The position numbers and the translations under genes are program-made. Under the pieces are notes generated by a model. That model was not told the origin of the DNA, did no database searches, and saw only the letters and a program-made list of their open reading frames with translations. Shown here piece after piece: positions 6,660-33,369 of a stretch of DNA of 64,000 nucleotides; the first letter of the stretch is position 1, and each line of letters opens with the position of its first letter. The stretch is from Bryobacterales bacterium (GTDB taxonomy: Bacteria; Acidobacteriota; Terriglobia; Bryobacterales; UBA6623): the NCBI GenBank assembly GCA_963422375.2, contig OY729428.2:2432001-2496000 (forward strand). Direction: 5' to 3'.

Positions 6660-6981
6660 TGCGGCGGAGTTTCGCTCCGGCGGCCCTCGTCGCCCTCGTC
6701 GCCCTCGTCGCGCTCGTCGCGGCCAGCTCGATCTCGCGGATCGCCTTGATGATCTCGGCGTGCTCCCGGCGGTGCATGTCGGTCATCGAGACCAGCTGGT
6801 CGCAGGCCTTGGCGATCTTGCCGTACATCTCCGCCAGATCCCCGCAGGACCGGGACACCATCCTGTGCATCTCCGCGATCTGGCTCATCGAGCGCGTGGC
6901 GCGCTGCACGAAGAAGGCCGCGGCCACGATCAATATGACCAGGCTGACGCCGCTGTCCACGACCTGCACCCACTCGCCCAT
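6652..6981 (-). CDS. Small membrane-anchored phage protein
   Basis: 109 aa, one N-terminal TM segment then helical; 9-bp repeat encodes ATRATRATR. Confidence 0.6.
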   Translation of the reverse strand: MGEWVQVVDSGVSLVILIVAAAFFVQRATRSMSQIAEMHRMVSRSCGDLAEMYGKIAKACDQLVSMTDMHRREHAEIIKAIREIELAATSATRATRATRAAGAKLRRNG

Positions 6982-6984
6982 TCC

Positions 6985-7635
6985 TTACCTCCCGAACAGG
7001 ACCGTCAGGCCCATCGACGCCCCCGGCGACCAGCCGGGACCGAATCCCTTGACCGCGCCGGCCGTCGCGCCGACGCCCCAGCGCAGCTTCCAGCGCTGCC
7101 TCCCCTCGAGCGTCCCGGCGCGGGCCTCGGCCAGCTCCCGGGCCGCCCGCTCGCGCTGCGCCAGCTCCTCGAAGCGGTCGGCCAGCTCCCGCACGGAAAC
7201 GGTCTCCCGGCGCGCCGCCGCCAGGGCGTCCCGCAAGGCGGCCACCTGCCGGAACAGCGCCTCGATCTCCTCGCCGCTGACCCGCAGGGCCTCCGGCAGA
7301 TCCGCGCGGAGCAGCTCCAAGCGCTTCCGGTCGAGCGCGGCTACGGGCAGTGTCTCCCGCTCGGCCGCGGCGACCGCGGCGACCGTTTCCGAGCCCCTCC
7401 GCTCGGCCTCGGCGCGGGCGGCCTCGGCCGCCTCGCGAGCCTCCCTCACGGCCGCGGCCCGCAAGCCCATCTCCGCCGCGTAGGCTCGCGCCTCGGCCTC
7501 GATCCGCGCCCGGCCGGCCCGCTCCCAGACGGCGAGCGCCTGCGCGGGCAGGCCCGGGGCCGGCAGCAGGGCCGCCAGGCCGAAGCCCAGCCCGACGCCG
7601 GCGGCCAGCGCCCCCGCCAGGGCCCAGGCGCTCAC
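6985..7635 (-). CDS. Spanin (Rz)-like membrane-anchored coiled-coil protein
   Basis: N-terminal hydrophobic anchor plus Ala/Glu/Arg coiled coil, downstream of the endolysin. Confidence 0.45.
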   Translation of the reverse strand: MSAWALAGALAAGVGLGFGLAALLPAPGLPAQALAVWERAGRARIEAEARAYAAEMGLRAAAVREAREAAEAARAEAERRGSETVAAVAAAERETLPVAALDRKRLELLRADLPEALRVSGEEIEALFRQVAALRDALAAARRETVSVRELADRFEELAQRERAARELAEARAGTLEGRQRWKLRWGVGATAGAVKGFGPGWSPGASMGLTVLFGR

Positions 7636-7844
7636 GCGCCCCCCTGCCGGCGGTGCCAGGCTTTCGCCAGCCGCTCGAGCGGCCCGCAGAGCGCCGCCCA
7701 GGCCCCGGACTGCAGCATGGCCGCCAGTCCGCCGACCGCCAGCAGCAGGCCGCAGGCGATCTCCAGCCAGCGCGCGTTCGCCAGCAGGACGAGCCCCGCG
7801 AACAGCGCCGCGACAGGCACGGGGCGCGGCCGGAACGCCGTCAC
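7632..7844 (-). CDS. Small hydrophobic phage protein
   Basis: GTG start overlapping the upstream stop; two hydrophobic segments. Confidence 0.45.
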   Translation of the reverse strand: MTAFRPRPVPVAALFAGLVLLANARWLEIACGLLLAVGGLAAMLQSGAWAALCGPLERLAKAWHRRQGGA

Positions 7845-8170
7845 GACCGCTCCTCGGGCGGCGCGAACACGGGGTGCAAGCGCTCGAACTCCCGCCCGGT
7901 GAACGTCATCACCGCGCCCCGGGCGTCCCGCACGGCCATGCGCCCGACCCCGAACTCGACGATCCGGCAGTCCCGCATGGCGGTGTGCGGCAGGCCCTCT
8001 ATCTCCAGCCGCTCGATGGTCGCGCCGACGCGCACCAGGGGGTCGGACGCCAGCCGGCGGTAAGCCCGCCGCCGCCGCCCGCCCTCGACGAAGGCCGACG
8101 CCCCGAACGCCGCCAGCGGCGACAGGAACGCCAGCGCCAGGGCCGTGCACAACGCTTCGATCATGGTCAC
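7841..8170 (-). CDS. Hypothetical phage protein with N-terminal TM segment
   Basis: GTGA-coupled start; MIEALCTALALAFLSPLAAFG. Confidence 0.5.
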   Translation of the reverse strand: MTMIEALCTALALAFLSPLAAFGASAFVEGGRRRRAYRRLASDPLVRVGATIERLEIEGLPHTAMRDCRIVEFGVGRMAVRDARGAVMTFTGREFERLHPVFAPPEERS

Positions 8171-8382
8171 TCGCAGTCCCCCCGGGCGCACTGCCAGGCC
8201 AAATGCAGCGCCAGCGCGCCGCACGACACGAACACCACCGCCGGCCCGATTTGGAACGCCAGCAAGGCCATCCGCTCTATCCGCTGCCCCAGATCGTGCA
8301 CGTTCATCGCCCACAGGAACGCGAGCGCGATCGAGGCGCAGCCCAGGGCCGCGAGCCCCAGCGTCTTCGCGAGCGTCTTCAT
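8167..8382 (-). CDS. Small two-TM phage protein
   Basis: MKTLAKTLGLAALGCASIALAFLWAM... 71 aa, directly after the endolysin. Confidence 0.5.
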   Translation of the reverse strand: MKTLAKTLGLAALGCASIALAFLWAMNVHDLGQRIERMALLAFQIGPAVVFVSCGALALHLAWQCARGDCE

Positions 8383-8390
8383 CGGATTCG

Positions 8391-8930
8391 CTAGCGGCAG
8401 CCGCCCTCCCGGTACAGGGGCACGAGGCCCCCGACCTTCGCCGGGTAGGCGCGGTTCTCCGCGCAGGCCCAGGCGGCCCGGATGCAGTGCCGCTCGACGT
8501 GGCCCGTCCAGCGCCGCGGGTCGCAGCCCGGCTCGCGCCGGCAGCGCGACTTCTCTCTCGCGATCCAGCCCGGTCCGCCGTTGTAGGCCGCCCACGAGAA
8601 CTCCCACGGCTCGCGATCGAAGCGGTAGCGCGCCAGCAGCCGCCGCATGTAGACGATCTGGGCCCGGATCGCGCAGCCCGGGTCGGTCGGGTCCGTCCCG
8701 TCGCAGCGCGGCGCGGTCAGCGGGGCGATGTCGCTCCACGTCGGCGGGGTGAACTGGGCCAGCCCGCTGGCGTAGCGCGAGCGCGCCCGCGGGCGCCACG
8801 ACGACTCGCGGTGGATCTGCGCCGCCAGCTCGGCCCGCATGCCGGCCGCCCCGGCGCGCGCGACCTCGGCCTCGAAGACCGGGGCCAGCTCGCACGGCAC
8901 CGCCAGCAGGGCCGCGGCCAGCAGGAGCAT
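8391..8930 (-). CDS. Endolysin, SLT lytic transglycosylase
   Basis: QIHRESSW (catalytic Glu), GLAQF and AAYNGG motifs; N-terminal hydrophobic segment. Confidence 0.9.
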   Translation of the reverse strand: MLLLAAALLAVPCELAPVFEAEVARAGAAGMRAELAAQIHRESSWRPRARSRYASGLAQFTPPTWSDIAPLTAPRCDGTDPTDPGCAIRAQIVYMRRLLARYRFDREPWEFSWAAYNGGPGWIAREKSRCRREPGCDPRRWTGHVERHCIRAAWACAENRAYPAKVGGLVPLYREGGCR

Positions 8931-9256
8931 CAGTAGGCCCCGCCCCAGGCGAAGGCCGTCAGGGTGGCCCCGTACAGCAGGCACCAGCCCACGATGTAGG
9001 CCGCCCGGGGCACGTCCTCCCCGTGCTGGCTGAACGGCGGCTGGCCCCGGATCACCTTGAGGATGTCGAAATCGCGGAACAGCGCCCGCTTCATGCCGAG
9101 GAAGAACAGCGTCGCCCCGGCGCAGGTCATGGTCTTGCCCAGGAGGGCGCCCAGGGCCCGCTCCAGCTCGCCGGGCCGCGCCCCCGCGCCGCCGTCGAGG
9201 AGAGCCAGCAGGAGCCCGCTCAGAGGAATCACCAGAAAAAACAGCAGGGCGCCCAC
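8930..9256 (-). CDS. Putative holin
   Basis: 108 aa, three hydrophobic segments, immediately upstream of the endolysin. Confidence 0.6.
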   Translation of the reverse strand: MGALLFFLVIPLSGLLLALLDGGAGARPGELERALGALLGKTMTCAGATLFFLGMKRALFRDFDILKVIRGQPPFSQHGEDVPRAAYIVGWCLLYGATLTAFAWGGAY

Positions 9257-11536: not shown

Positions 11537-12289
11537 TCAGAAGCCCGCCACGCGGTCCGCCACCGCCGGGGCGCCCCAGCCCGCCGCCGCCCGCTCCTGC
11601 GAGCGGCGCGTGCGGGCCACCCTCAGGCCGCTGCGCAGGCCGTAGCGCATGCAGTCCATCAGGTGGTCGTGCTTCTTCACCACGCGCCCCCTCTCGTCGC
11701 GGCGGTAGATGCCGAACTCGAAGCGGAAGTACTGGAGCGTGCGGAACACCCGCAGCCGCCCCGTCTGCATGCGATCGTAGCACTCCTCGATGCCCGCGCT
11801 CACCGCGTTGTCCGCCGGGTGCATCGCCAGCCCGCAGCGGGCGTAGCTCTCCATCACCGACTCGCCGTCCTTCACCGTCGCGCCCGCCGAGGACGGGTCG
11901 ATCACCCCCGGCACCCACGCCCCGCGGGCCTTGATCGCCAGCGCGTGCAGCTGCACCGGCTTGCGCCCCTGGTAGTACTCCGACACCAGGTACGCGCAGT
12001 CGGCGTCCCGGTCGTGCGCCAGCCACAGGCACGCCGTGCGGTTCCAACCCGTGTCCAGCGCGAAGCAGCGCGTCCACGCGTCCGGCACCCGGAACGGATC
12101 GACCGTGATCGAATCCACGTCCAGGTCGTAGATGCGCCCGACCCCCAGCACCGGCTCCCCGCGCACCCGCGCGCCCCGCAGGTGCGGCGGCGTCGCCGAC
12201 AGCATCTCCCGCTTGGTCTTCTCCGCCAGGTGCGGGACGTCCCCCCAGCCCACCTGCGTCGTGTAGCGGCTCCCCCCGACCCGCGGCAT
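11537..12289 (-). CDS. Terminase large subunit, C-terminal (nuclease) part
   Basis: ALDTGW and HDHLMDCMRY RNase H-like motifs; own RBS GGAGGT 8 nt upstream of ATG. Confidence 0.85.
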   Translation of the reverse strand: MPRVGGSRYTTQVGWGDVPHLAEKTKREMLSATPPHLRGARVRGEPVLGVGRIYDLDVDSITVDPFRVPDAWTRCFALDTGWNRTACLWLAHDRDADCAYLVSEYYQGRKPVQLHALAIKARGAWVPGVIDPSSAGATVKDGESVMESYARCGLAMHPADNAVSAGIEECYDRMQTGRLRVFRTLQYFRFEFGIYRRDERGRVVKKHDHLMDCMRYGLRSGLRVARTRRSQERAAAGWGAPAVADRVAGF

Positions 12290-12323
12290 CTCGCCCTACC
12301 TCCCGGCCCCGCTCCCGGCCCCG

Positions 12324-13154
12324 CTACCAGCCCGGACGCGCGTCCGGGTCCGGCGGCCGCAACTCGTCCGGCAGGAAGTTCAGCACCACGTCCGTCAGCC
12401 CCTCCAGGGGCGTGAAGGTCAGGTACACGATCCCGTCCACCGTGCCCGTGCGGATCACGCACTCCCCGTACACGTCGTCCGGAGGCTCCTCGTCCAGCCA
12501 GATCACGTGCTTGGCCGTGCCCTCGAACGAGCCCCGCCCCTGCTCGTAGCTCTTCAGGGTCAGCAGGCTGCGCTCCGTGCGCGAGTCCCGCCACAGCACG
12601 TCCACCTCGTTCAAAAGCGCGTTGAAGCCCGAGCGGAACTTCGCCGACTGGTGCGCGATCCGCTCCGCCGGCACCATCCCCTCGCCCGACAGCCGGTTCT
12701 GCCCCCGCGAGTCCTTGCGCACCGGCCCGAACAGCTTCTCCTGCACGATGTCCCGCGTGGTCTCGTTGGTCTTGCCCACCGCCCACGCCTGCACCGGGCG
12801 GTCGAACCTCCGGCCTTCCCACCAGTCCGGGTACAGCCCCGTCAGATGCGCCGTCATCTCGTAGGCCGCCATCTCCGTCTTGCCCGTCCGGTTGCCCCCC
12901 ATCACCGCCCGCTCGCGCGCCCACGCCCCCGCCCGGAAATGCTCCAGGTGCTTCGCGTAGGCGTGCCGCGACAGCTTGCCCGTCCCGGGGTACATGCGGA
13001 AGTACCGCCCCCCCTTGCTCAGCTTGCCCAGCTCCGACAGCACCTCTCCCAGACGCTCGCGCGCGGGCGCGTCCAGCCGCCCCACCGCTTCCGCGTCCCG
13101 CGCCGCCCGCGCCAAACGCTCCGCCGTCTCCGCGATGGCCGCTCCCTGCATCAA
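12324..13154 (-). CDS. Terminase large subunit, N-terminal (ATPase) part
   Basis: Walker A GGNRTGKT, Walker B VIWLDEE, coupling motif TFTP. Confidence 0.9.
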   Translation of the reverse strand: MMQGAAIAETAERLARAARDAEAVGRLDAPARERLGEVLSELGKLSKGGRYFRMYPGTGKLSRHAYAKHLEHFRAGAWARERAVMGGNRTGKTEMAAYEMTAHLTGLYPDWWEGRRFDRPVQAWAVGKTNETTRDIVQEKLFGPVRKDSRGQNRLSGEGMVPAERIAHQSAKFRSGFNALLNEVDVLWRDSRTERSLLTLKSYEQGRGSFEGTAKHVIWLDEEPPDDVYGECVIRTGTVDGIVYLTFTPLEGLTDVVLNFLPDELRPPDPDARPGW

Positions 13155-15459: not shown

Positions 15460-15731
15460 CTTGAGTCGCCCCAGCCCCAGCGACAGCGCCAACGCGGCTC
15501 CAATCCGTCGCCGCGCCCGCCGATCTCGCAGCTGCCCCTCACGCCCCACCGCCGCGCCAGCGCCCCGCCATCCGGTTCGGCCGGCGCCGGCCCAGACTGC
15601 GATGGCCTGCCGAATCCGCCGAATCCGCCCGTGAGCCGGCCGTGTATATACACGGTGCCGGCCGAACTCCGGGAAAACCGATGACACTAGGAAATATTTA
15701 TGAAAAAACCAGAAATATACCTAAATACCTA

Positions 15732-15759
15732 TTGACATGAGACCACGATGTGGTATGCT
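15732..15759 (+). promoter_or_regulatory. Sigma70-type promoter P1
   Basis: TTGACA-N16-TATGCT, extended -10 TG, A/T-rich upstream tract. Confidence 0.75.
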
Positions 15760-16124: not shown

Positions 16125-16152
16125 TTGACAGTACCACACGATGTGGTACTGT
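16125..16152 (+). promoter_or_regulatory. Sigma70-type promoter P2 with palindrome gtaccaca-cga-tgtggtac
   Basis: TTGACA-N16-TACTGT followed by RBS ggaggaaagg and ATG 16172. Confidence 0.6.
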
Positions 16153-16171: not shown

Positions 16172-16906
16172 ATGACCACCTATACATGCGTTGGTCCGGT
16201 GCGCGGGTGCTGCGGCATCCGGCACCGGACCCACGAGGAGGCCGACCGCTGCGTGCGCTACGACTCGGACGGCGAAGTTTCGCTGGGCCGGCACAGCGAT
16301 CGCCAGGTGGTGGTGGCGGAGGAGCACGAGGAGCTCCTTCCGCCGATCACATATACCTGCGTCGGACCGGTGCTCGGATGCTGCGGCATCCGGCACCGGA
16401 CCCACGAGGAGGCCGACCGCTGCATCGAGAGCAGCGAGGTCGTTGCTCCCGGCGATTGGTACGATCGCCGGATCGTGATCGCCGAGCGACACGGCGACGC
16501 GATCGCGGCCGTTCGGCAGCGGATCGATCTGCCGGCCGACATCGACCTGAGCCCGGTGGGTCTCGTGCTCACCGGGCACGAAATCCCGGCGATGGTGCAC
16601 CAGCAGCTGCACGCGGCTGGCCTGCACCCGGCCACCATGTGGTGCGACCACCACATGGGCGTACTGCTCGAGGACGTGCGCGGCACGCACGTCCTCGAGA
16701 TCCTACGAGAGGACGATCGCGAGGGCCTGCCGGCCCGCCTGGCGGTGCGTGCGGCCGGGTATCACCTGCTGGTGCTACCACGACCGCACGAGCAGGCGGG
16801 CCGGGCGCGGTACTACTCGTGCACGCGCAACGGCCCGCTGTGGGCGCCGCCCGGGCCGACTATGCGGGAGGCGGGTCGCGCCGCCTCCCAGGAGGAGACA
16901 CCATGA
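16172..16906 (+). CDS. Protein with two copies of the YTCxGxVxGCCGIRHR domain plus a C-terminal domain
   Basis: RBS plus ATG; two TYTCVGPVxGCCGIRHRTHEEADRC units; C-terminal part paralogous to 18552-19082. Confidence 0.8.
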   Translation: MTTYTCVGPVRGCCGIRHRTHEEADRCVRYDSDGEVSLGRHSDRQVVVAEEHEELLPPITYTCVGPVLGCCGIRHRTHEEADRCIESSEVVAPGDWYDRRIVIAERHGDAIAAVRQRIDLPADIDLSPVGLVLTGHEIPAMVHQQLHAAGLHPATMWCDHHMGVLLEDVRGTHVLEILREDDREGLPARLAVRAAGYHLLVLPRPHEQAGRARYYSCTRNGPLWAPPGPTMREAGRAASQEETP

Positions 16907-17319
16907 CCGAGGGGCAATGCGTACTGCTAATTGACCCGGACCGCGAGGATTGCGCCGGCGGCACGATCCTCGCATCCCTCTCAGACGGCCTAGTAGAGGT
17001 CGACTGGGACTACGAGATTAGCGGGCCGGTCGACCTTTCCGCGCTCGAGCCGACCGAGGCGCGCAGCGCGGCGGCGCGCGATCGCGAGATCTCGCGCCTA
17101 TGGAGCGAGCGTCACGCCTACACGTGCGTCGGGAGCGTGCGGGGATGCTGCGGCATCCGGCACCGCTCCCGTGCCGCCGCCGAGCGCTGCATCGAGCGAG
17201 ACGAGCGCCGTCTCGCCTCGCATGGGTGCTTCGGCGACCGCCAGGTGGTGCTCGCGAGGGAGCACGAGGACGAGCTGCGGTACCTCGCGGAGCTCCGGCG
17301 GCGCGGCCATCCATCATGA
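16903..17319 (+). CDS. Protein with C-terminal YTCxGxVxGCCGIRHR domain
   Basis: RBS aggaggag; YTCVGSVRGCCGIRHRSRAAAERC. Confidence 0.75.
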   Translation: MTEGQCVLLIDPDREDCAGGTILASLSDGLVEVDWDYEISGPVDLSALEPTEARSAAARDREISRLWSERHAYTCVGSVRGCCGIRHRSRAAAERCIERDERRLASHGCFGDRQVVLAREHEDELRYLAELRRRGHPS

Positions 17320-17588
17320 CCTATCCCGAGCCCACCTACACCTGCCTTGGGCCGGTGAGCGGATGCTGCGGCATCCGCCACCGGACCAAGTCCGCGGCCG
17401 AGCGCTGCGTCAATCGCCACTGGCGCAGCTGCGCCGACCAGGGCGGGTACGGCGAGCGCGTCGTCGTACCCGCGGACGAGCTCGAGCCGCCGCGGCGGCT
17501 CTCCGACGAGCCCGAGGCCGCTGCCGATCTCGAGCGGCGGTACGCCGACTCGCTGCAAACGCTGCGGCGGCTCGGACATTTTCCGTGA
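17316..17588 (+). CDS. Single-domain YTCxGxVxGCCGIRHR protein
   Basis: ATGA-coupled; MTYPEPTYTCLGPVSGCCGIRHRTKSAAERC. Confidence 0.75.
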   Translation: MTYPEPTYTCLGPVSGCCGIRHRTKSAAERCVNRHWRSCADQGGYGERVVVPADELEPPRRLSDEPEAAADLERRYADSLQTLRRLGHFP

Positions 17589-18517
17589 CGCCGCCGCGCC
17601 CCGGCCACGGGGCGGAGGCGCGGTTCGCCGAGCGCTTCGCCCCGGCCACGGCCCGCCTGTACGCGGGCCAGTGGCGGGCCTGGGAAACGTGGGCCTGGCT
17701 GTCGGGGCGGACGCCCCTGCCGGCCGATTCGGCTTCCCTGGCCGAGCACGTGCTGGCGCGCTCGGCCTCGGCCTCGATGCCCACGCTGCGGGCGGCGGTG
17801 GCGGCGGTCGGGGCCGCCCACCGCTTGGCTGGATCGCCCGACCCGTCGGACAGCGAGACCGTGCGGGCGGCGCTCGCGATGGCCGCGCGCAAGATCGGCA
17901 GCGACAGCGCGCAGGCGCGGCCGCTGGACGCGGCGGCGCTCGAGCTCGTTGTCGCGACCGCGACCAAGCCCCGGCGGGGGCGGGGGGGCAGTCGGGAGAC
18001 GCCGCGGAGGGCCGAGCGGCGCGGGCGGGTGGACATCGCGCTCTGCCGCGTGATGCGAGACGCCATGCTGCGGCGGTCCGAGGCCGCGGCGCTAGGATGG
18101 GGCGACGTGGAGACCTACACGGACGGGTCGGCGCGTCTGACGGTGAGGCGATCGAAGACGGACCAGGCGGGGCGGGGGGCGGTCCTGTACCTCGGTCCCG
18201 AGGCCGCCGCGGCGCTGGCCGCGATCCGTCCGGAGACGCCGCGCGGGACGGTATTCGGCCTGGGGGCGCGGCAGATCTGCCGCCGCATCGCCGCGGCCTG
18301 CCAGGCGGCCGGCCTGGGGGCGGGCTACTCGGGCCACTCTCCGCGGGTGGGCATGGCGCAGGACTTGGTGGCCTACGGGGCGGACCTGCCCGCCGTCATG
18401 CAGGCCGGGCGGTGGTCCTCGCCCGACATGCCCGCCCGCTACTCGCGGCACCTGCTGGCCGGGCGGGGGGCCGTCGCGCAGTACTACGCGTGCGGGCAGG
18501 TCCCGCGCGGACGATGA
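17585..18517 (+). CDS. Cre-like tyrosine recombinase
   Basis: GTG coupled to upstream stop; LRRSE (R), RSKTDQ (K), GHSPR (HxxR), GRW (W), ARY (Y); N-terminal core-binding domain. Confidence 0.9.
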   Translation: MTPPRPGHGAEARFAERFAPATARLYAGQWRAWETWAWLSGRTPLPADSASLAEHVLARSASASMPTLRAAVAAVGAAHRLAGSPDPSDSETVRAALAMAARKIGSDSAQARPLDAAALELVVATATKPRRGRGGSRETPRRAERRGRVDIALCRVMRDAMLRRSEAAALGWGDVETYTDGSARLTVRRSKTDQAGRGAVLYLGPEAAAALAAIRPETPRGTVFGLGARQICRRIAAACQAAGLGAGYSGHSPRVGMAQDLVAYGADLPAVMQAGRWSSPDMPARYSRHLLAGRGAVAQYYACGQVPRGR

Positions 18518-18551
18518 GAGAGGCCGGTCGCGCCGGCCAGGAGGAGACACC

Positions 18552-19082
18552 ATGACCTATCCCAAGCCCACATACACCTGCCTCGGCAGGGTGAGCGGAT
18601 GCTGCGGCATCCGCCACCGGAGCAGGGCCGAGGCCGAGCGCTGCATTGAGCGCGCGGCCGCTGCCTCGGAGGAGCAAGACGCTTATTTCGACCGCCGCAT
18701 CGTGCTCGCGTCAGAGCACGAATACGCGTTGGCGGCGGCGCGGCAGGTCATCGAGCTGCCGGCCGACATCGCGCTGAGCCCGGTAGGCCTGGTGGCCACG
18801 AGGCTCAAGCCCGAAATCCCGGACTCCTTTGAGCAGCTGCTCCTGGCGTCTGGGCTAAGCCCAGACGCCGAGTGGCGCGACGACCGCGGTCTGGGCGAGC
18901 AGGACACCAGGGATCGCATCGTCCTGGAGATCGTCCGGGAGGACGCTCGACTCAGCGAGGGGCTGTCGGCGCGGCTGGCGGTGCTGGCCAGAGCGTACCA
19001 TCTGCTGGTCCTGCCAGCTGTCCTGCCCGCCCCCATGCACGACGAGCGGGGAGGGGGCGTCGCGCGGTACGCTCGCTCCTAA
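18552..19082 (+). CDS. YTCxGxVxGCCGIRHR domain protein, paralogue of 16172-16906
   Basis: Shares LPADIxLSPVGLV, VLEIxRED, EGLxARLAV and YHLLVLP. Confidence 0.8.
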   Translation: MTYPKPTYTCLGRVSGCCGIRHRSRAEAERCIERAAAASEEQDAYFDRRIVLASEHEYALAAARQVIELPADIALSPVGLVATRLKPEIPDSFEQLLLASGLSPDAEWRDDRGLGEQDTRDRIVLEIVREDARLSEGLSARLAVLARAYHLLVLPAVLPAPMHDERGGGVARYARS

Positions 19083-19110
19083 CTGACAGCCGCCCTCGGC
19101 GTGGTAGGCT
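19083..19110 (+). promoter_or_regulatory. Degenerate promoter P3, likely leaderless transcript
   Basis: CTGACA-N16-TAGGCT-gtaggc-ATG, same layout as P1. Confidence 0.5.
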
Positions 19111-19116
19111 GTAGGC

Positions 19117-19422
19117 ATGACGACGGAGAGCTCCCGCACCGCCGAGCCGGCCCCGAAGAAGCGCTACGGCGCCAAGCAGGTGCGTGTCACGCAGCCGTGC
19201 ATGGACCTGCTAGCGGACTTGACGGCGCGCCTGGGGCCGCACTGGGCGCACCGGCCGGCGAGCGACGTGATCGCGTGGGCGGTCACGCGAGCGATCGCGA
19301 CGCTGGACCCCGAGACGGCGAAGACGGCGACCGGGCTGGCCGCGGCCCTGGACGCGCACGAGGCGGCGCTGCGCAGGTTCCGCGCGGGCTGGCCGGGCGA
19401 GCCGGCCGAGATGCCGCGATAG
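19117..19422 (+). CDS. Small protein, possible ribbon-helix-helix DNA-binding regulator
   Basis: KQVRVT strand followed by helices (MDLLADLTARL; ASDVIAWAV). Confidence 0.5.
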   Translation: MTTESSRTAEPAPKKRYGAKQVRVTQPCMDLLADLTARLGPHWAHRPASDVIAWAVTRAIATLDPETAKTATGLAAALDAHEAALRRFRAGWPGEPAEMPR

Positions 19423-19532: not shown

Positions 19533-19560
19533 TTGACAGACCTCCACGATGTGGTATACT
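19533..19560 (+). promoter_or_regulatory. Sigma70-type promoter P4
   Basis: TTGACA-N16-TATACT, extended -10, upstream tract similar to P1 (ctaaatacctattgaca). Confidence 0.8.
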
Positions 19561-19584
19561 GTATACAGGAAAGGAGGTCAGCAC

Positions 19585-19875
19585 ATGCAGTTTGACCTTA
19601 TCATCACGCGCCACCCGGCGCTGCTTACAGTCCTCGTCGAGGACTTCGGCGTGTCCCCGGACACGCCCGTGGTCGCCCACGCTACGGCGGGCGACCTGAA
19701 GGACAAGCACACCCTAGGCGTGCTTCCCGTGGGACTCGCGGCGCTTACCGCGAGTCACACGGAACTGGTGCTCCGGGTTCCCCCGGAGCTCCGGGGCACC
19801 GAACTCAACGCCCAGCAGGTCCGCCAGTACATGGCGGGCCTCAAGGCCTACCAAATTCAAGAGGTGACGCTGTAG
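19585..19875 (+). CDS. Csx16-like (Cas_VVA1548-like) protein, candidate ring nuclease
   Basis: 96 aa; IITRHP, LGVLPVGLAA and PPELRGTELN resemble the remembered Csx16 pattern (SRH.., IGTLP..LAA, RGxEL); RBS aaggaggt. Confidence 0.65.
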   Translation: MQFDLIITRHPALLTVLVEDFGVSPDTPVVAHATAGDLKDKHTLGVLPVGLAALTASHTELVLRVPPELRGTELNAQQVRQYMAGLKAYQIQEVTL

Positions 19876-19882
19876 GTCACCT

Positions 19883-19911
19883 GAGGCGCCCGGGCTTAGT
19901 CCGGGCGCCTC
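19883..19911 (+). terminator. GC-rich hairpin after the Csx16-like gene (no clear U-tract)
   Basis: gaggcgcccgg-gcttagt-ccgggcgcctc. Confidence 0.5.
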
Positions 19912-19929: not shown

Positions 19930-20535
19930 ATGACGACGATGCTATCGGCGACCGCCGGCCCGACCTTGAGTGACCTCGAAAACAAGAGGCAGCCCAAGGA
20001 AGCTGCCGAGAAGTACGGTATCACGACAGCCATGTATCGGCTGATGAGGTACGACGTGCTGAATCTCTGGGCTTACGTAGAGAAGTACCGGATTAGGCGG
20101 GACACCTATTACGACATTTACAATATAGAGGTCCTTCTTCTCGGCAAGGTGGCAGTCTACGCCCCGATAGGGCGCAGGCCCGAAATTCCTAGCCGATACG
20201 TGGAAAAGGAACTGCATATCGGCGAGGTAAGGCCTTGCGGTCATCAGATTCGCGTGGAGCGCAACTACGCGAGCGAGAAGGCACCCATCGAGTATCTGCC
20301 CGAGAGGGCATTCAATAAATGCTTCGAGGGCGATATGAACGTCCTGGTCAGGGACGTCATACGTCACTTCGATATAACGTGTCGGAGGATAGCAGGCATG
20401 ATTCTCTACTCCTACGACGACGAGATATATGCTAGCAAGCTGTATCAACGTCTGAGTATGGGCAGGGAAGTTGCGGACTTGCCTGTAGCCAGGGACGCGC
20501 TCCTGAGTGAGTATCGTACCCTAAAAGGAGAATAA
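19930..20535 (+). CDS. Unknown-function paralogue 1 of 4
   Basis: IGEVRPCGHQIRVERNYASE...RDVIRHFDITCRRIAG; lower GC. Confidence 0.75.
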   Translation: MTTMLSATAGPTLSDLENKRQPKEAAEKYGITTAMYRLMRYDVLNLWAYVEKYRIRRDTYYDIYNIEVLLLGKVAVYAPIGRRPEIPSRYVEKELHIGEVRPCGHQIRVERNYASEKAPIEYLPERAFNKCFEGDMNVLVRDVIRHFDITCRRIAGMILYSYDDEIYASKLYQRLSMGREVADLPVARDALLSEYRTLKGE

Positions 20536-21042
20536 ATGAAATACAAATACAAGTATCTTAGTAAGTACGAGATCGACAAGCTGGGGAGGGACTTCTTCCT
20601 CATAGTAGCTCCGATTACTACGATACCTATGTATCGGATGGGCCTCGAGGGGGATCCTACGGTCCCTAAGGGCCACATGAAATACTCGTTCTGTCTAGCG
20701 GATGTTAGGTCGTGTAGTAACAGGCTCCGTATAGAGTATCATTACGCGGGCGAGTGGGATCCGCTGGAGTACATGTCCAAGGAGCGCTACGAGAGCGATT
20801 ACGGGGGCGATTTGGATACTCTATGTAGAGACATCGCACGTCGTTTCGATATGTCGTGCAGTAAGATCAAGGGCATGGTGTCTTATCAAAAGTTTCCCGA
20901 GCCCAGCGCTTGGGATGAGATAAGGGCTATTAAGCTCTACGAGTGGCTACTAACAGGCAACGAGCCGTCGGACCTGTTAGTAGGCATAGGCAAGGGTAAC
21001 GTCTTGAGGGAGTTTACCTTACTAATGAAAGGAGAAGCATGA
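20536..21042 (+). CDS. Unknown-function paralogue 2 of 4
   Basis: LADVRSCSNRLRIEYHYAGE...RDIARRFDMSCSKIKG; RBS aaggag. Confidence 0.8.
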   Translation: MKYKYKYLSKYEIDKLGRDFFLIVAPITTIPMYRMGLEGDPTVPKGHMKYSFCLADVRSCSNRLRIEYHYAGEWDPLEYMSKERYESDYGGDLDTLCRDIARRFDMSCSKIKGMVSYQKFPEPSAWDEIRAIKLYEWLLTGNEPSDLLVGIGKGNVLREFTLLMKGEA

Positions 21043-21539
21043 AGTTCGAAATGGAAAGACGAGTCGGGCCGACATACGTTGTGTATGTCGTTCCGGACGA
21101 TGAAGACCCATTACGGGTGTTCACTATGGAGAGGGGCGCAGAGACGCCCCTGAAGGTCGACCTAAAGAAGTCGATAGCCTGCTTCCGGGCGGCGGGCCGA
21201 CAACTGCTCGTAGAGAGGTACTACGCCTCCTGCGAGCTGCCCATTGAGTACCACTCTCAGTGGGCAGTCAAGCGTCTCTGGAGGCACGAGCCTCTAGAGA
21301 TCGCACGGTCTCTCGTGCGCCAGTTTAGGCTGGCGTATAACGAGGCCGGAGGAATGGTGATACGCTACCGGAGCTGTGACGACGGCTATTTCACGGCCGC
21401 TTCACAGGCTCTCTACGAAGATCTGACGGGCTTCGAGGGCCCCCAGATTAAGTTCCATAACGAGCCAGAGAAGATCACAGTACCCGTGACCTTCTACATC
21501 GTGGGAAGGGAGGAATCACATGAAGAAGAAGAAGTATGA
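21039..21539 (+). CDS. Unknown-function paralogue 3 of 4 (most diverged)
   Basis: IACFRAAGRQLLVERYYASCELPIEY; RBS aaggag, ATGA overlap. Confidence 0.75.
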   Translation: MKFEMERRVGPTYVVYVVPDDEDPLRVFTMERGAETPLKVDLKKSIACFRAAGRQLLVERYYASCELPIEYHSQWAVKRLWRHEPLEIARSLVRQFRLAYNEAGGMVIRYRSCDDGYFTAASQALYEDLTGFEGPQIKFHNEPEKITVPVTFYIVGREESHEEEEV

Positions 21540-22077
21540 CGAGTCCGGAGCATACTACAGGGTGTATCGGTACACCCAGATGGGCTTCTGGAGTCATATC
21601 CAGAGCTACGAGGTCTCGGAAGCGGCAGGGGACTTCTTTGTTTCAGTGCGGCCTATGAACGAGATATGTCTGTACAAGCCGCCCATACATGGGGATAACC
21701 TAATTTCCAGCGTTCGGATCAATCATCCTATTCCTATCGCGGACGTAAGGCCCTGCGGTAGGGAACTGCGCGTAGAGAGATACTACGCGAGCGAGATGGC
21801 TCGCGTAGATCATATCCCTGAGGGGGTATTCGATCGCGAGTACGGGCAAGATCTAGATCTATTAGCTCGTGACATTGCACGTCATTTCGATTTGACGTGC
21901 CGTAGGATAGACGGAGCGGTGTTCTACCCGCACGCTTCAGATGGCGGCCCCCGGGAAGAGGTTAGGGCCGACAAGCTGTTTCGCCGCCTTCGGACGGGCG
22001 AGGATGTGGAGGACTTGATCCCGAACAGGAAGTATGTCCCAAAGGGGTATGCTTCCCTGCTTAAGTGGTACTCCTAA
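21520..22077 (+). CDS. Unknown-function paralogue 4 of 4
   Basis: IADVRPCGRELRVERYYASE...RDIARHFDLTCRRIDG; RBS ggagg. Confidence 0.8.
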   Translation: MKKKKYDESGAYYRVYRYTQMGFWSHIQSYEVSEAAGDFFVSVRPMNEICLYKPPIHGDNLISSVRINHPIPIADVRPCGRELRVERYYASEMARVDHIPEGVFDREYGQDLDLLARDIARHFDLTCRRIDGAVFYPHASDGGPREEVRADKLFRRLRTGEDVEDLIPNRKYVPKGYASLLKWYS

Positions 22078-22189
22078 GCATCCGATTCGATAGTGGATGT
22101 AACTCAGGTTTGCGGGCATGGCGGATCGTTCCGCTAGAAAGGAGGTCACCTCATGAAGGTTGACCTGGTCGTCCTCGGCGCCTCGCCCA

Positions 22190-23251
22190 TCAGGAGAGCC
22201 TTCCCACATCCTTCAGATGCTCGATGAACCGGTGGCCGATCAGCTCCGCCAAGCGGACAGGGACCGCGTTGCCGATCTGTCTCGACATCGACGCCATGCT
22301 CCCCTCGAAAACGAAGTCCTCCGGGAACGTCTGCAGGCAAGCCGCTTCTCGAACGCTGATGGCCCTGTGCTGCTCCGGGTGGCCGAAGCGGCCGTTCGAG
22401 TAGCTTGTGCATCGTGTGGTGAGCCCCGATGCGGGCGTGTCCCACGACATCCGGCCGTAGACGTCGCTATAGCCTGAGAAACCCTTGTGGCATTGGAGTC
22501 GCAGATGTTCCGGCCAGTCCCGATTGCCGCCGCCTTCCGGCGTCGCCTTGATGCGCTCCAGGTTGCGCGGGGAGAGATTTGCCGCTCTGTGGTTCGCAAC
22601 CTTCCTGTGCGCAGCGCCAGCCCGTAGCGGCGGAAGATGGGATATCCGGTCCCGGACCGTGGTGTATCGCTCGCACGACGTTCCCGGCCCGTGCGTCTCA
22701 TCGGGCAGATGGATCGCACCGTGGCGGCTCCCGACCAGGACGAGCCGGCGGCGGCTCTGCGGTACGCCGTACTTGGCGAGCGTGATGGGACGGTAGTCCA
22801 TTTTGTAACCCGCTCCGTCCAGTCGGCTCAGGAAACCGCCGAAAGGCTGACTGTTCGCGTCGAGCTTCTGCAAACCCGGAACGTTTTCCACGAAAACGAG
22901 ATCCGGGCGGCAAACTTCCACCAAGCGCGCAAAGCAGGCAAGCAGTGGCACGCGCTCGTCTCGATCCGGCAACGGTCGTGTCGTATTCTGTTGCGTGAAG
23001 GGCTGACACGGTGCGCATCCGCTGAACAGCACCGGTTTGGACCCTTCTGCCTCTACCCGGCTCCGGATCGCCTGGAGACTTGCCTTGCGGATATCCGCAA
23101 GTTCGAAATGCGCATCGGGAAAGTTGGCTTCGAAGCTCCCCTTCGCATCCGCATCGTGATCCAGGGCAAACGCGATCTCCATGCCCGCGGCTTGAAAACC
23201 GCAGCTTGCACCGCCACAGCCAGCGAAGAAGTCGTATACCCGAACCGTCAG
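22190..23251 (-). CDS. DNA (cytosine-5) methyltransferase, orphan; probable CTG start
   Basis: Motif I DFFAGCGG (upstream of first ATG), IV GCAPCQPF, VI ENVPG, VIII QSRRR, IX REAACLQTFP, X IGNAVP. Confidence 0.9.
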   Translation of the reverse strand: MTVRVYDFFAGCGGASCGFQAAGMEIAFALDHDADAKGSFEANFPDAHFELADIRKASLQAIRSRVEAEGSKPVLFSGCAPCQPFTQQNTTRPLPDRDERVPLLACFARLVEVCRPDLVFVENVPGLQKLDANSQPFGGFLSRLDGAGYKMDYRPITLAKYGVPQSRRRLVLVGSRHGAIHLPDETHGPGTSCERYTTVRDRISHLPPLRAGAAHRKVANHRAANLSPRNLERIKATPEGGGNRDWPEHLRLQCHKGFSGYSDVYGRMSWDTPASGLTTRCTSYSNGRFGHPEQHRAISVREAACLQTFPEDFVFEGSMASMSRQIGNAVPVRLAELIGHRFIEHLKDVGRLS

Positions 23252-23440: not shown

Positions 23441-23672
23441 TCCTGCACAGCAGGCTGCTCATCTGGCAGGAAATCACCCGCTGCACGATCGCGACGGCCC
23501 TTGTCCGGTCGGAGGGTCTGTCCGGGTCGATGCCGACCTGGGACGCGACGGCCGCCAGGGCTGCCGCGCCGAGGCACTCGGACACCATGCCCGCGATCCA
23601 CTCGCTCTTGCTATTGTCGTCGGCGCCGCCCAGGGGAGCGGAATCGCCGAAGGTCACGAGCGGTCGCGGCAT
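23436..23672 (-). CDS. Hypothetical protein
   Basis: MPRPLVTFGDS... 78 aa in operon context. Confidence 0.4.
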   Translation of the reverse strand: MPRPLVTFGDSAPLGGADDNSKSEWIAGMVSECLGAAALAAVASQVGIDPDRPSDRTRAVAIVQRVISCQMSSLLCRN

Positions 23673-24649
23673 CTGCGGTTGATCTCCTGCAGGCAGGCGA
23701 GGGCCGCGGCGCGACACTCCACGAGCGTGTCCTTGGAGAGGCCGGCCGCGTCGCGATGGCCGCCGCCGCCGTGCCGGCTGGCGACGGCCGACAGGTCGAT
23801 GCCGGGGGCCTTGCCGCGGGCCCAGGGGTTGGCGCCGAGCGAGACGCCGAACTTCTCGGGGCCGCTCCAGGTCTGCACGCTGAAGAGCGCCTCGGGGAAG
23901 CGCCGGTAGGGCGCGTAGCGCGAGAAGCCGTGCCGGCCCCCGGCTCCGTCGGCGAAGGCGACGGAGCCCCGCAGCTCGCAAGCCTTCTCCGCGTCGCTGT
24001 CGGCCTGCAGCTGCCGGCGGCGCATGGCGGCGAAGCGCTCGGTGGCGGCGATCTCGCGGGCGCAGCCGCCGAGCCCCTCGGCGCGCAGGGCCGCGATCAC
24101 CGAGCTCTGCTCGCCGGGCCGGGCATGCTTCAGGTAGAGGCGGACCTGCAGCGCGGGCAGGTCCGTGTCGAGCGCCTGGTCCGCCGACTCGTAGCTCGCC
24201 GTGTCGCACAGGTCGGCCCAATGCACCAGCTCTTCCCACTGGGGGCCGGCGACGCCCAGGGCGCGGGCGATCAGGCCCGCGCAGCTCGGGGCCGAGGGAT
24301 CGCAGGCGAAGCGGCCGGGCCGCTCCCCCTTGCGTATCTCGTATTCCGCCCGCTGCGCGTAGCCGTCCGGCCCGTCGGAGAAGCTGGTCTCGTGGTGGTC
24401 GAACCACCAGGCGAGCGCGGGGTCGGGCGTCCAGCGGAAGTCGACCACGGCGCTCGCGGAGAAGCCGTGCGCGGGCAGCGGCCGCGGGTCGACGTAGGCG
24501 CGCGGCAGGTAGGCGCAGGTCGCGTCCTGGCCGAGCTCGCGATGGACGGCCTCGGTGAGGACGGCGGCGCTGATCGCGCCGTCGAAGCAGTGCCCGTGGT
24601 AGGCGACCAGCACGCTCTTGCGGCTCGGTCCGGTGACGTTCGGTTGCAT
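23654..24649 (-). CDS. DHH/DHHA1 phosphoesterase
   Basis: YHGHCFDG, VVDF, WFDHH and GGGGHRDAAG motifs. Confidence 0.9.
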   Translation of the reverse strand: MQPNVTGPSRKSVLVAYHGHCFDGAISAAVLTEAVHRELGQDATCAYLPRAYVDPRPLPAHGFSASAVVDFRWTPDPALAWWFDHHETSFSDGPDGYAQRAEYEIRKGERPGRFACDPSAPSCAGLIARALGVAGPQWEELVHWADLCDTASYESADQALDTDLPALQVRLYLKHARPGEQSSVIAALRAEGLGGCAREIAATERFAAMRRRQLQADSDAEKACELRGSVAFADGAGGRHGFSRYAPYRRFPEALFSVQTWSGPEKFGVSLGANPWARGKAPGIDLSAVASRHGGGGHRDAAGLSKDTLVECRAAALACLQEINRRCRDRS

Positions 24650-33292: not shown

Positions 33293-33369
33293 TGGTCGGG
33301 GCGCCGAGATTTGAACTCGGGACCTCTTGCTCCCGAAGCAAGCGCGCTACCAGGCTGCGCCACGCCCCG
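33293..33369 (-). tRNA. tRNA-Pro (anticodon CGG)
   Basis: CGGGGCGTGGCGCAGCCTGGTAGCGCGCTTGCTTCGGGAGCAAGAGGTCCCGAGTTCAAATCTCGGCGCCCCGACCA; cloverleaf, TTC loop, CCA end. Confidence 0.97.

Follow-up and report, generated by a model that had tools for sequence, protein, structure and literature searches.

We found that a prophage of a Bryobacterales bacterium carries a csx16-family gene in a host whose type III CRISPR system, presumably signaling through cA4, has spacers against the element. Based on its sequence and on a structural model, we suggest that the product of this gene, P0001, is a cA4-degrading anti-type III protein (probability roughly 0.7). That viruses can defeat type III CRISPR with ring nucleases is well established. 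What is new here is the host context of a csx16 prophage: a type III-B system, targeting spacers and a second carrier prophage. The DNA analyzed (the window) is a stretch of 64,000 nucleotides on contig C2 and contains the right part of a 59.7-kb prophage at a tRNA-Pro gene. Features are listed in Table 1, in window coordinates unless a contig is named.

csx16 has its own expression signals. A previous reading of the window from its letters (the sequence-only reading) had described a 96-amino acid ORF with a near-consensus promoter, a strong ribosome binding site and a downstream hairpin. The ORF does run from an ATG at 19585 to a TAG at 19875. A second in-frame ATG, at 19549, lies within the promoter spacer and is therefore unlikely to be the start. 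The promoter was recovered by a scan as the sole promoter-like site between 17000 and 23000 (shuffled sequences gave 1.2 sites of any quality), and the ribosome binding site was as described. The stem of the hairpin is also real: a 66-nt stretch containing it had a folding energy of -36.5 kcal/mol (z = -5.1), equaled by 0/200 shuffles. However, it is not a canonical intrinsic terminator, because it lacks a U-run and went uncalled in a terminator scan. It could be a processing stem, a stabilizing stem or an atypical terminator. The csx16 stretch was near-identical in contigs from three studies, with 0-1 differences over the gene in the pieces listed, and is thus not an assembly artefact. Positions 22137-22173 resemble the ribosome binding site and start of csx16 but do not mark another copy of it: the frame that begins there has 24 codons and lies opposite the end of a methyltransferase gene.

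Table 1. Features of the csx16 region and of the prophage, with host loci mentioned in the text
Feature	Position	Strand	Basis or remark
Sister promoter with the same palindrome	15732..15759	+	36/42 nt identical to csx16 promoter block
Protospacer of spacer 13	15668..15704	-	32/37; 5' of first shared promoter
Protospacer of spacer 6	16425..16462	-	35/38; antisense to + strand early-type ORF
Protospacer of spacer 15	18529..18563	-	35/35; antisense to RBS/start of 18552 ORF, 1 kb 5' of csx16
Protospacer of spacer 8	18690..18729	+	37/40; sense strand, TTC flank
101-aa ORF, ribbon-helix-helix-like, candidate Aca-like repressor	19117..19422	+	Language-model features only
Sigma-70 promoter TTGACA-16-TATACT, extended -10 TG	19533..19560	+	Promoter scan, 11/12 matches
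Candidate operator palindrome CCAC-GAT-GTGG	19544..19554		In promoter spacer adjoining -10; also in 15732 and 16125 promoters; putative function
Shine-Dalgarno AGGAGGT	19572..19578	+	6 nt 5' of P0001 ATG
csx16-family gene (P0001, 96 aa), predicted cA4 ring nuclease	19585..19875	+	ORF list, Pfam, PADLOC, model, alignment
GC-rich hairpin, 13-bp stem, 3-nt loop, no U-tract	19883..19911	+	Folding compared with shuffles
Four paralogous low-GC ORFs, no known family	19930..22077	+	Directly 3' of csx16, possibly co-transcribed
Right attachment site, 50-bp perfect repeat (3' part of tRNA-Pro CGG)	33293..33342		
Self-targeting and type I-G side observation	G000:C1:378282-380515; C1:426486-434084; C2:114715-122335		

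P0001 belongs to the Csx16 (Cas_VVA1548) family, as the sequence-only reading had suggested from sequence motifs; TRHP, GVLP..LAA and PPELRG.EL are all present. Residues 6-91 matched positions 2-90 of the Pfam profile PF09652 with 49.5 bits (gathering cut-off 25; E = 5e-13). In PADLOC, Csx16 matched at E = 2.5e-12; four Csx16 models matched, as did one model of a CARF-HEPN-Csx16 fusion. The NCBIfam model TIGR02620 gave 19.7 bits (E = 8e-4), below its curated cut-off of 46.35, and PHROGs gave just a weak match to an unknown family. An exhaustive homolog search with P0001 yielded 815 representatives at E <= 0.001, and 46/46 of those rescanned passed PF09652; a word-indexed search returned the query itself only. 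Profile matches of P0001 to DARPins in the PDB were rejected as chance likeness to the ankyrin consensus.

We found that P0001 keeps residues of a CRISPR-linked Csx16. R9, H10, H32, R70 and E73 are identical in the Allochromatium protein, the only CRISPR-linked copy in the residue alignment; these are conserved positions, not thereby catalytic ones. Among 55 viral Csx16 cores (58 distinct loci, described below, minus two with split alignments and one with a short core), R9 and H10 were present in 54 and H32 in 52. These three residues lie outside the patterns used to find the viral loci. R70 and E73 belonged to a search pattern, so they are not independent evidence of conservation.

An AlphaFold2 model of P0001 (pLDDT 96.5) was compared with 48,161 chains of known structure. 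The top match was AFV3-109, of the AcrIII-1 family (2j6c; Z = 5.0, rmsd 2.6, 74 residues aligned), followed by the Crn2 part of Csx1-Crn2 (8y7g; Z = 4.3). The Z scores are modest, and identity in these alignments is 11-12% (12% for 2j6c). A Foldseek search of the PDB and BFVD with the model gave no match at E <= 0.001. P0001 had no match to DUF1874 (PF09652 was the only Pfam match at E <= 0.1), and a PDB sequence search with P0001 and its alignment gave no match to AcrIII-1. The protein had been described as distinct from AcrIII-1, which is right for the sequence family but probably not for the fold. For a cellular Csx16, the structural match given in the available text of PMC12409355 is 2J6B (Z = 4.8), and the accessible part of a review calls Csx16 partially similar to DUF1874 (PMC8284326). 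As for cellular Csx16, the small alpha/beta fold modeled for P0001 is nearest to the viral Crn2/AcrIII-1 homologue.

The link between Csx16 and ring nuclease activity, also made in the sequence-only reading, has been published. According to the portion of PMC12409355 available, cellular Csx16 binds cA4 as a homodimer, in a pocket with conserved His and Arg residues, cleaves it to linear products, does not degrade cA3 or cA6, is specific for cA4 even at 10 μM, and occurs in 68 type III loci. P0001 is like the cellular protein in its near-full-length profile match, its size, predicted fold and nearest PDB family, and the five residues named above. It is unlike it in being prophage-borne with no adjoining cas genes, in falling below the TIGR02620 cut-off, and in having its own palindrome-bearing promoter (a candidate operator).

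P0001 might instead bind cyclic nucleotides as a sponge, or act on cA3, cA6 or CBASS-type messengers. Its divergence from the TIGR02620 model would fit this, as would a tree of the family (94 columns, mostly unresolved, and with no claim as to the direction of transfer) that groups it solely with the other prophage copy in its host. Viral copies of Csx16 are often fused or tandem, and some Csx15 proteins sponge cA4, as described in the accessible part of PMC13148439. Nevertheless, the polar residues common to CRISPR-linked Csx16 are all kept in P0001, the Csx16 tested was specific for cA4, and the host has a type III-B system. We consider a sponge or another messenger unlikely.

csx16 sits in a + strand island of small genes that is divergent from the terminase genes. 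Elsewhere the prophage encodes an integrase, an N4-gp56-type capsid protein, a portal/connector protein, RecT and a helicase, and the left partner of the attachment repeat lies beside the integrase gene, ~26.4 kb left of the window start. The palindrome of the csx16 promoter is shared by the sister promoter and by a third promoter copy starting at 16125. A weak fourth copy of the promoter block (19072-19113) lies 5' of the 19117 ORF, whose product had no Pfam match and whose language-model features matched clusters of ParB-C and MetJ (0.92-0.93). The palindrome in three promoters and this ribbon-helix-helix-like upstream ORF, recognized by language-model features only, are what the locus has to compare with an acr-aca operon. 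The four paralogs downstream are 26-35% identical among themselves. They had no match in Pfam, NCBIfam, PADLOC or PHROGs, and the one paralog tried in Atlas came back blank. We infer that the island is laid out as one would expect for an early anti-defence cassette, and the four paralogs are candidates for further anti-defence genes.

The gene had been called stand-alone, with no cas genes or CRISPR array in the window. The only real array recovered by scanning the whole genome is on a different contig, and among 25 window ORFs scanned with Pfam there was no Cas protein except P0001. With respect to cas genes csx16 does stand alone; however, it is part of a multi-promoter, early-type cassette and is perhaps co-transcribed with the genes downstream.

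Several other genes of the prophage may be recorded. A short Cys/His-rich domain (motif YTC-G-V-GCCGIRHR) recurs five times in small ORFs between 16141 and 19082, a region with clustered matches to host spacers 6, 8 and 15 and weaker ones to spacers 11, 12 and 20. A second tyrosine-recombinase-like gene (17171-18517) lies in the early island, away from the integrase linked to the att site. On the - strand, the ATPase and nuclease parts of the large terminase (11537-13154) are encoded by separate ORFs in different frames, the second of which may have a ribosome site in front of it; this could reflect a natural split, a frameshift or a sequence error. A C5 cytosine methyltransferase gene (22190-23182, - strand) converges on the island and is followed by a very short start of what we take to be a Vsr-like gene. 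A DHH/DHHA1 phosphoesterase is encoded at 23654-24649 (- strand), also within the prophage. Enzymes of the DHH/DHHA1 type can degrade nucleotide signals.

We found that the host encodes a complete type III-B system. Its single CRISPR array (31 repeats and 30 spacers in the genome-wide scan) adjoins cas2, cas4g/cas1g and cmr1-6 on contig C1; csx16 is in the prophage on C2, outside the type III locus. The sequence-only reading had proposed looking for cas10 in the host. It is there, with its GGDD motif intact, along with all of cmr1-6 (cmr3 matching below its cut-off), CARF-HEPN effectors and spacers against the prophage. One ancillary protein, encoded at C1 380807-382132, is a CARF-6H-HEPN protein (TIGR02710) of the CARF1 clade, with a Csm6-type 6H domain and an R-x6-H HEPN-type motif. 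The others are an NE0113 CARF protein, labeled a ring nuclease by NCBIfam and 51% identical to a neighbor of csx16 in Allochromatium, and a CARF2-HEPN Csx1 whose gene is broken beside an insertion sequence. A search for solved relatives of the NE0113 and CARF-HEPN proteins found none. In the available text of PMC11229360, Csx1 is treated as cA4-activated, and cA6-activated Csm6 was not found beside cA4 effectors. For these reasons we think cA4 likelier than cA6 as the host signal. A cA4-specific enzyme would not help if the intact CARF1-clade CARF-HEPN effector uses cA6.

Twelve of the 30 host spacers match two resident prophages. Six match the csx16 prophage (35/35, 35/35, 37/37, 37/40, 35/38 and 32/37 positions) and the other six are directed against a second prophage family (38/38, 36/36, 40/41, 36/38, 36/39 and 32/35); the remaining 18 have <=27 matches anywhere in the genome. 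Within the csx16 prophage, 4/6 protospacers fall between 15668 and 18729, just upstream of csx16 and 5% of the prophage length (binomial P about 1e-4, with the interval picked post hoc). Three spacers (6, 15 and 16, the latter two perfect matches) run antisense to ORFs of the prophage and could therefore be used by an RNA-targeting system. Spacer 17 matches a 4,647-amino acid ORF of the same prophage, left of the window (L009:6014-19957, - strand).

The array is probably shared with a DNA-targeting type I-G system. The 5' flank is TTN for 9/12 protospacers (TTC for seven), and 7/12 protospacers are on the sense strand. TTN is the PAM of type I-G. The host has two type I-G-like loci, a label that we gave from gene order and motifs, the cas3 matches being below the TIGR01587 cut-off; one locus has four open frames and intact cas3 motifs. 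These loci, the flanks and strands of the protospacers, and Cas4g/Cas1g together are the reason for proposing a shared array. Since a ring nuclease could not block type I-G, survival of the prophage needs a further explanation, and the self-targeting is only circumstantial evidence for Csx16. The argument from self-targeting is weaker still because silent prophages can be tolerated by type III systems without any Acr. As a separate observation, spacers 16, 17 and 27 have perfect protospacers with TTC flanks in the resident prophages, despite an apparently intact type I-G locus, which hints that the locus is silenced or that an anti-I-G protein is present. There is a cas4 remnant immediately 5' of the type I-G cas3.

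A second prophage family in the same genome also carries csx16. The genome has three PF09652 matches, the window gene and two in this family. The copy of the second prophage on C1 has an intact csx16 adjoining a repressor gene; it is ~54% identical to the window gene in protein and 69% in DNA, keeps all key residues, and had no NCBIfam match at E 0.01. The C3 copy has a 5'-truncated csx16, and the C2 copy has none. Contigs break inside these repeated elements, and the number of copies of the second prophage is therefore uncertain. A 39-bp stretch just upstream of the C1 csx16 is 95% identical to window positions 17613-17651, and this sequence likeness suggests that a csx16 module moved between the two prophages. 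The two prophages, otherwise unrelated, also share a 2.4-kb block containing a tRNA-Arg(CCT) gene, 95% identical (window 6739-9187).

The main role of csx16 might lie in the lysogen and not in infection: it might protect the host cell by damping autoimmunity caused by self-targeting spacers and leaky prophage transcripts. The perfect antisense spacers 15 and 16 are directed against a resident prophage, both targeted prophages carry csx16, and there is no other Csx16 copy in the host type III locus. Set against this, the operator-like palindrome shared by the promoters suggests that csx16 is repressed in the lysogen, the host NE0113 protein already bears the NCBIfam label of ring nuclease, and relatives of P0001 occur in the lytic-looking archaeal virus PhiF3 and in small-gene arrays of plasmids. 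We rate a damping role as unlikely, slightly less probable than a sponge or a different messenger.

The truncated and missing copies raise another possibility, that csx16 is a neutral or decaying passenger of the cassette and the prophages survive through silent genes, an unrelated anti-I-G protein or an inactive CRISPR system. The large terminase takes two ORFs, which are out of frame with each other, and one host effector is broken near an insertion sequence. But the frame, promoter and ribosome binding site of the window gene are intact, and the two intact copies have kept all key residues at the identities given above. The gene is also near-identical in contigs from the three studies, and the family recurs across dozens of unrelated viruses. 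Of the three alternatives we find this the least probable, and we prefer an anti-type III function for P0001.

Spacer 1 seems to have been taken from yet another csx16 gene. It lies at the end of the array opposite two degenerate repeats and is therefore probably the newest spacer. In frame it encodes a Csx16-like 11-mer, a likeness first spotted by eye and then scored: 41.5 against 158 homolog domains, compared with 44.3 for the same place in P0001. Random 36-mers of the genome scored 20.0 +/- 2.6 (maximum 30.8; 0/600 reached spacer 1), and the best of the 30 spacers against 40 column-permuted families scored <=30.4. In DNA, spacer 1 matches the window csx16 at 25/36 positions, the genome background level, and the other two copies at 19/36, and an exact protospacer was found neither in IMG/VR nor in the metagenome contigs searched; the peptide test is the sole support for this origin. 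Because it is a sense-strand spacer, spacer 1 would not trigger type III.

We found that Csx16 is mobile-element cargo in our sample rather than a native cas accessory. PF09652 was found in 0/400 other genomes sampled from the phylum and in 1/60 relatives (G016); the Cas10 palm domain was present in 5/30 same-genus genomes. The G016 domain (L095:9723-11105) is fused to pentapeptide-like repeats and lacks R9 and R70, and G016 had no cas10 match. At one viral locus (L085), a pentapeptide-repeat gene lies directly 3' of csx16. Scanning with one protein at a time recovered little. The shares of CRISPR loci and mobile elements among cellular homologs were compared for this phylum and four plasmid regions. 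Those regions come from the 5/72,556 plasmids with Csx16: three had no annotated cas neighbors, and one was a CRISPR locus. Among named phage records, 1/50,697 had Csx16 (Methanobacterium virus PhiF3).

A search of IMG/VR with two exact peptide patterns gave 147 pattern matches and 74 Csx16 loci, 58 of them distinct at 90% identity. None of the loci had a blastp match to any of ten host Cas proteins. Two sets of ORFs were scanned with Pfam, 115 long ones (for each distinct locus its two longest, with one tandem Csx16 left out) and 74 further ones (67/90 immediate csx16 neighbors plus seven), and apart from a TnpB transposase no Cas family turned up in either set. Two loci (L054 and L085) have 3-4 spaced repeats each. 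The arrangement seen in our prophage, with an oppositely oriented terminase, portal, capsid or connector gene upstream of csx16, recurs at 8/58 loci, seven of which belong to a single cluster. Fusions and tandem forms are many among the viral copies. Tandem two-domain proteins are encoded at L026:4962-6308 and by P0002, P0024, P0057, P0079 and P0088, and one virus has a tandem Csx16 beside a single-domain copy. On the Deinococcus plasmid pDEIPR02, csx16 (L096:5992-6276) is part of a long same-strand array of small ORFs that includes two SSB genes and resembles a plasmid leading region.

The idea of a phage Csx16 is not new, since the available portion of PMC12409355 already counts Csx16 in 2, and AcrIII-1 in 36, of 28,114 phage genomes. 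A literature search for a viral Csx16 tested as an anti-CRISPR or for activity found no such paper. The nearest recorded counterpart, PhiF3 ORF30 (QGZ14607.1), is likewise a viral copy free of cas genes, 33% identical to P0001 over 97% of the query. Unlike the phage Csx16 on record, P0001 comes with a host type III-B system, spacers matching its carrier and a second carrier prophage in one genome. AcrIII-1/Crn2 (DUF1874), a viral cA4 ring nuclease, shares with P0001 the proposed function and logic and is its nearest solved fold; however, it is a proven Acr, and the two have no sequence-level match. AcrIII-2/Crn5, Crn4b and viral Csx15 (proposed AcrIII-3) are also phage or plasmid ring nucleases, shown or proposed to be anti-CRISPRs in the accessible parts of PMC13148439, PMC12830947 and 10.64898/2026.10.26.761840. 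They differ from P0001 in family and in fold (SAVED, the Crn4 fold, CARF filament), and we saw no match to it.

We propose that P0001 acts as follows. The small ring nuclease would be made from its strong promoter in the accessory cassette, presumably early in infection. When the host Cmr complex binds a phage transcript, Cas10 would make cyclic oligoadenylate, most likely cA4, which would activate the CARF-HEPN RNase of the host. As predicted from the cellular protein, P0001 would form a homodimer, bind cA4 in the conserved His/Arg pocket and cut it to linear products. With the effector kept off, matching spacers would not prevent the phage from infecting, remaining as a lysogen or being induced. 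P0001 would thus be a functional analogue, and a distant fold relative, of AcrIII-1. Conceivably, the upstream ribbon-helix-helix protein represses the palindrome-bearing promoters in the fashion of an Aca.

More broadly, we judge the chances about even that Csx16 is a widespread viral and plasmid family of anti-type III ring nucleases and that its frequency in uncultivated viruses is much higher than one would expect from the 2 cultured phages on record. On this view the host genome would record an arms race, in which two unrelated prophages targeted by 12/30 spacers each gained csx16, the module apparently moved between them, and a leader-end spacer came from a third csx16 variant. The prophage may also need another inhibitor, against type I-G, and the four paralogs that follow csx16 are candidates for this role. 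Because one genome holds a matched natural set of Csx16 enzyme, Cas10, effectors and targeting spacers, the question of Csx16 as an anti-CRISPR is directly testable. Movement from virus to cell has been proposed for Crn2. The IMG/VR sample suggests that Csx16 is common viral cargo, which bears on whether it moved in the same direction.
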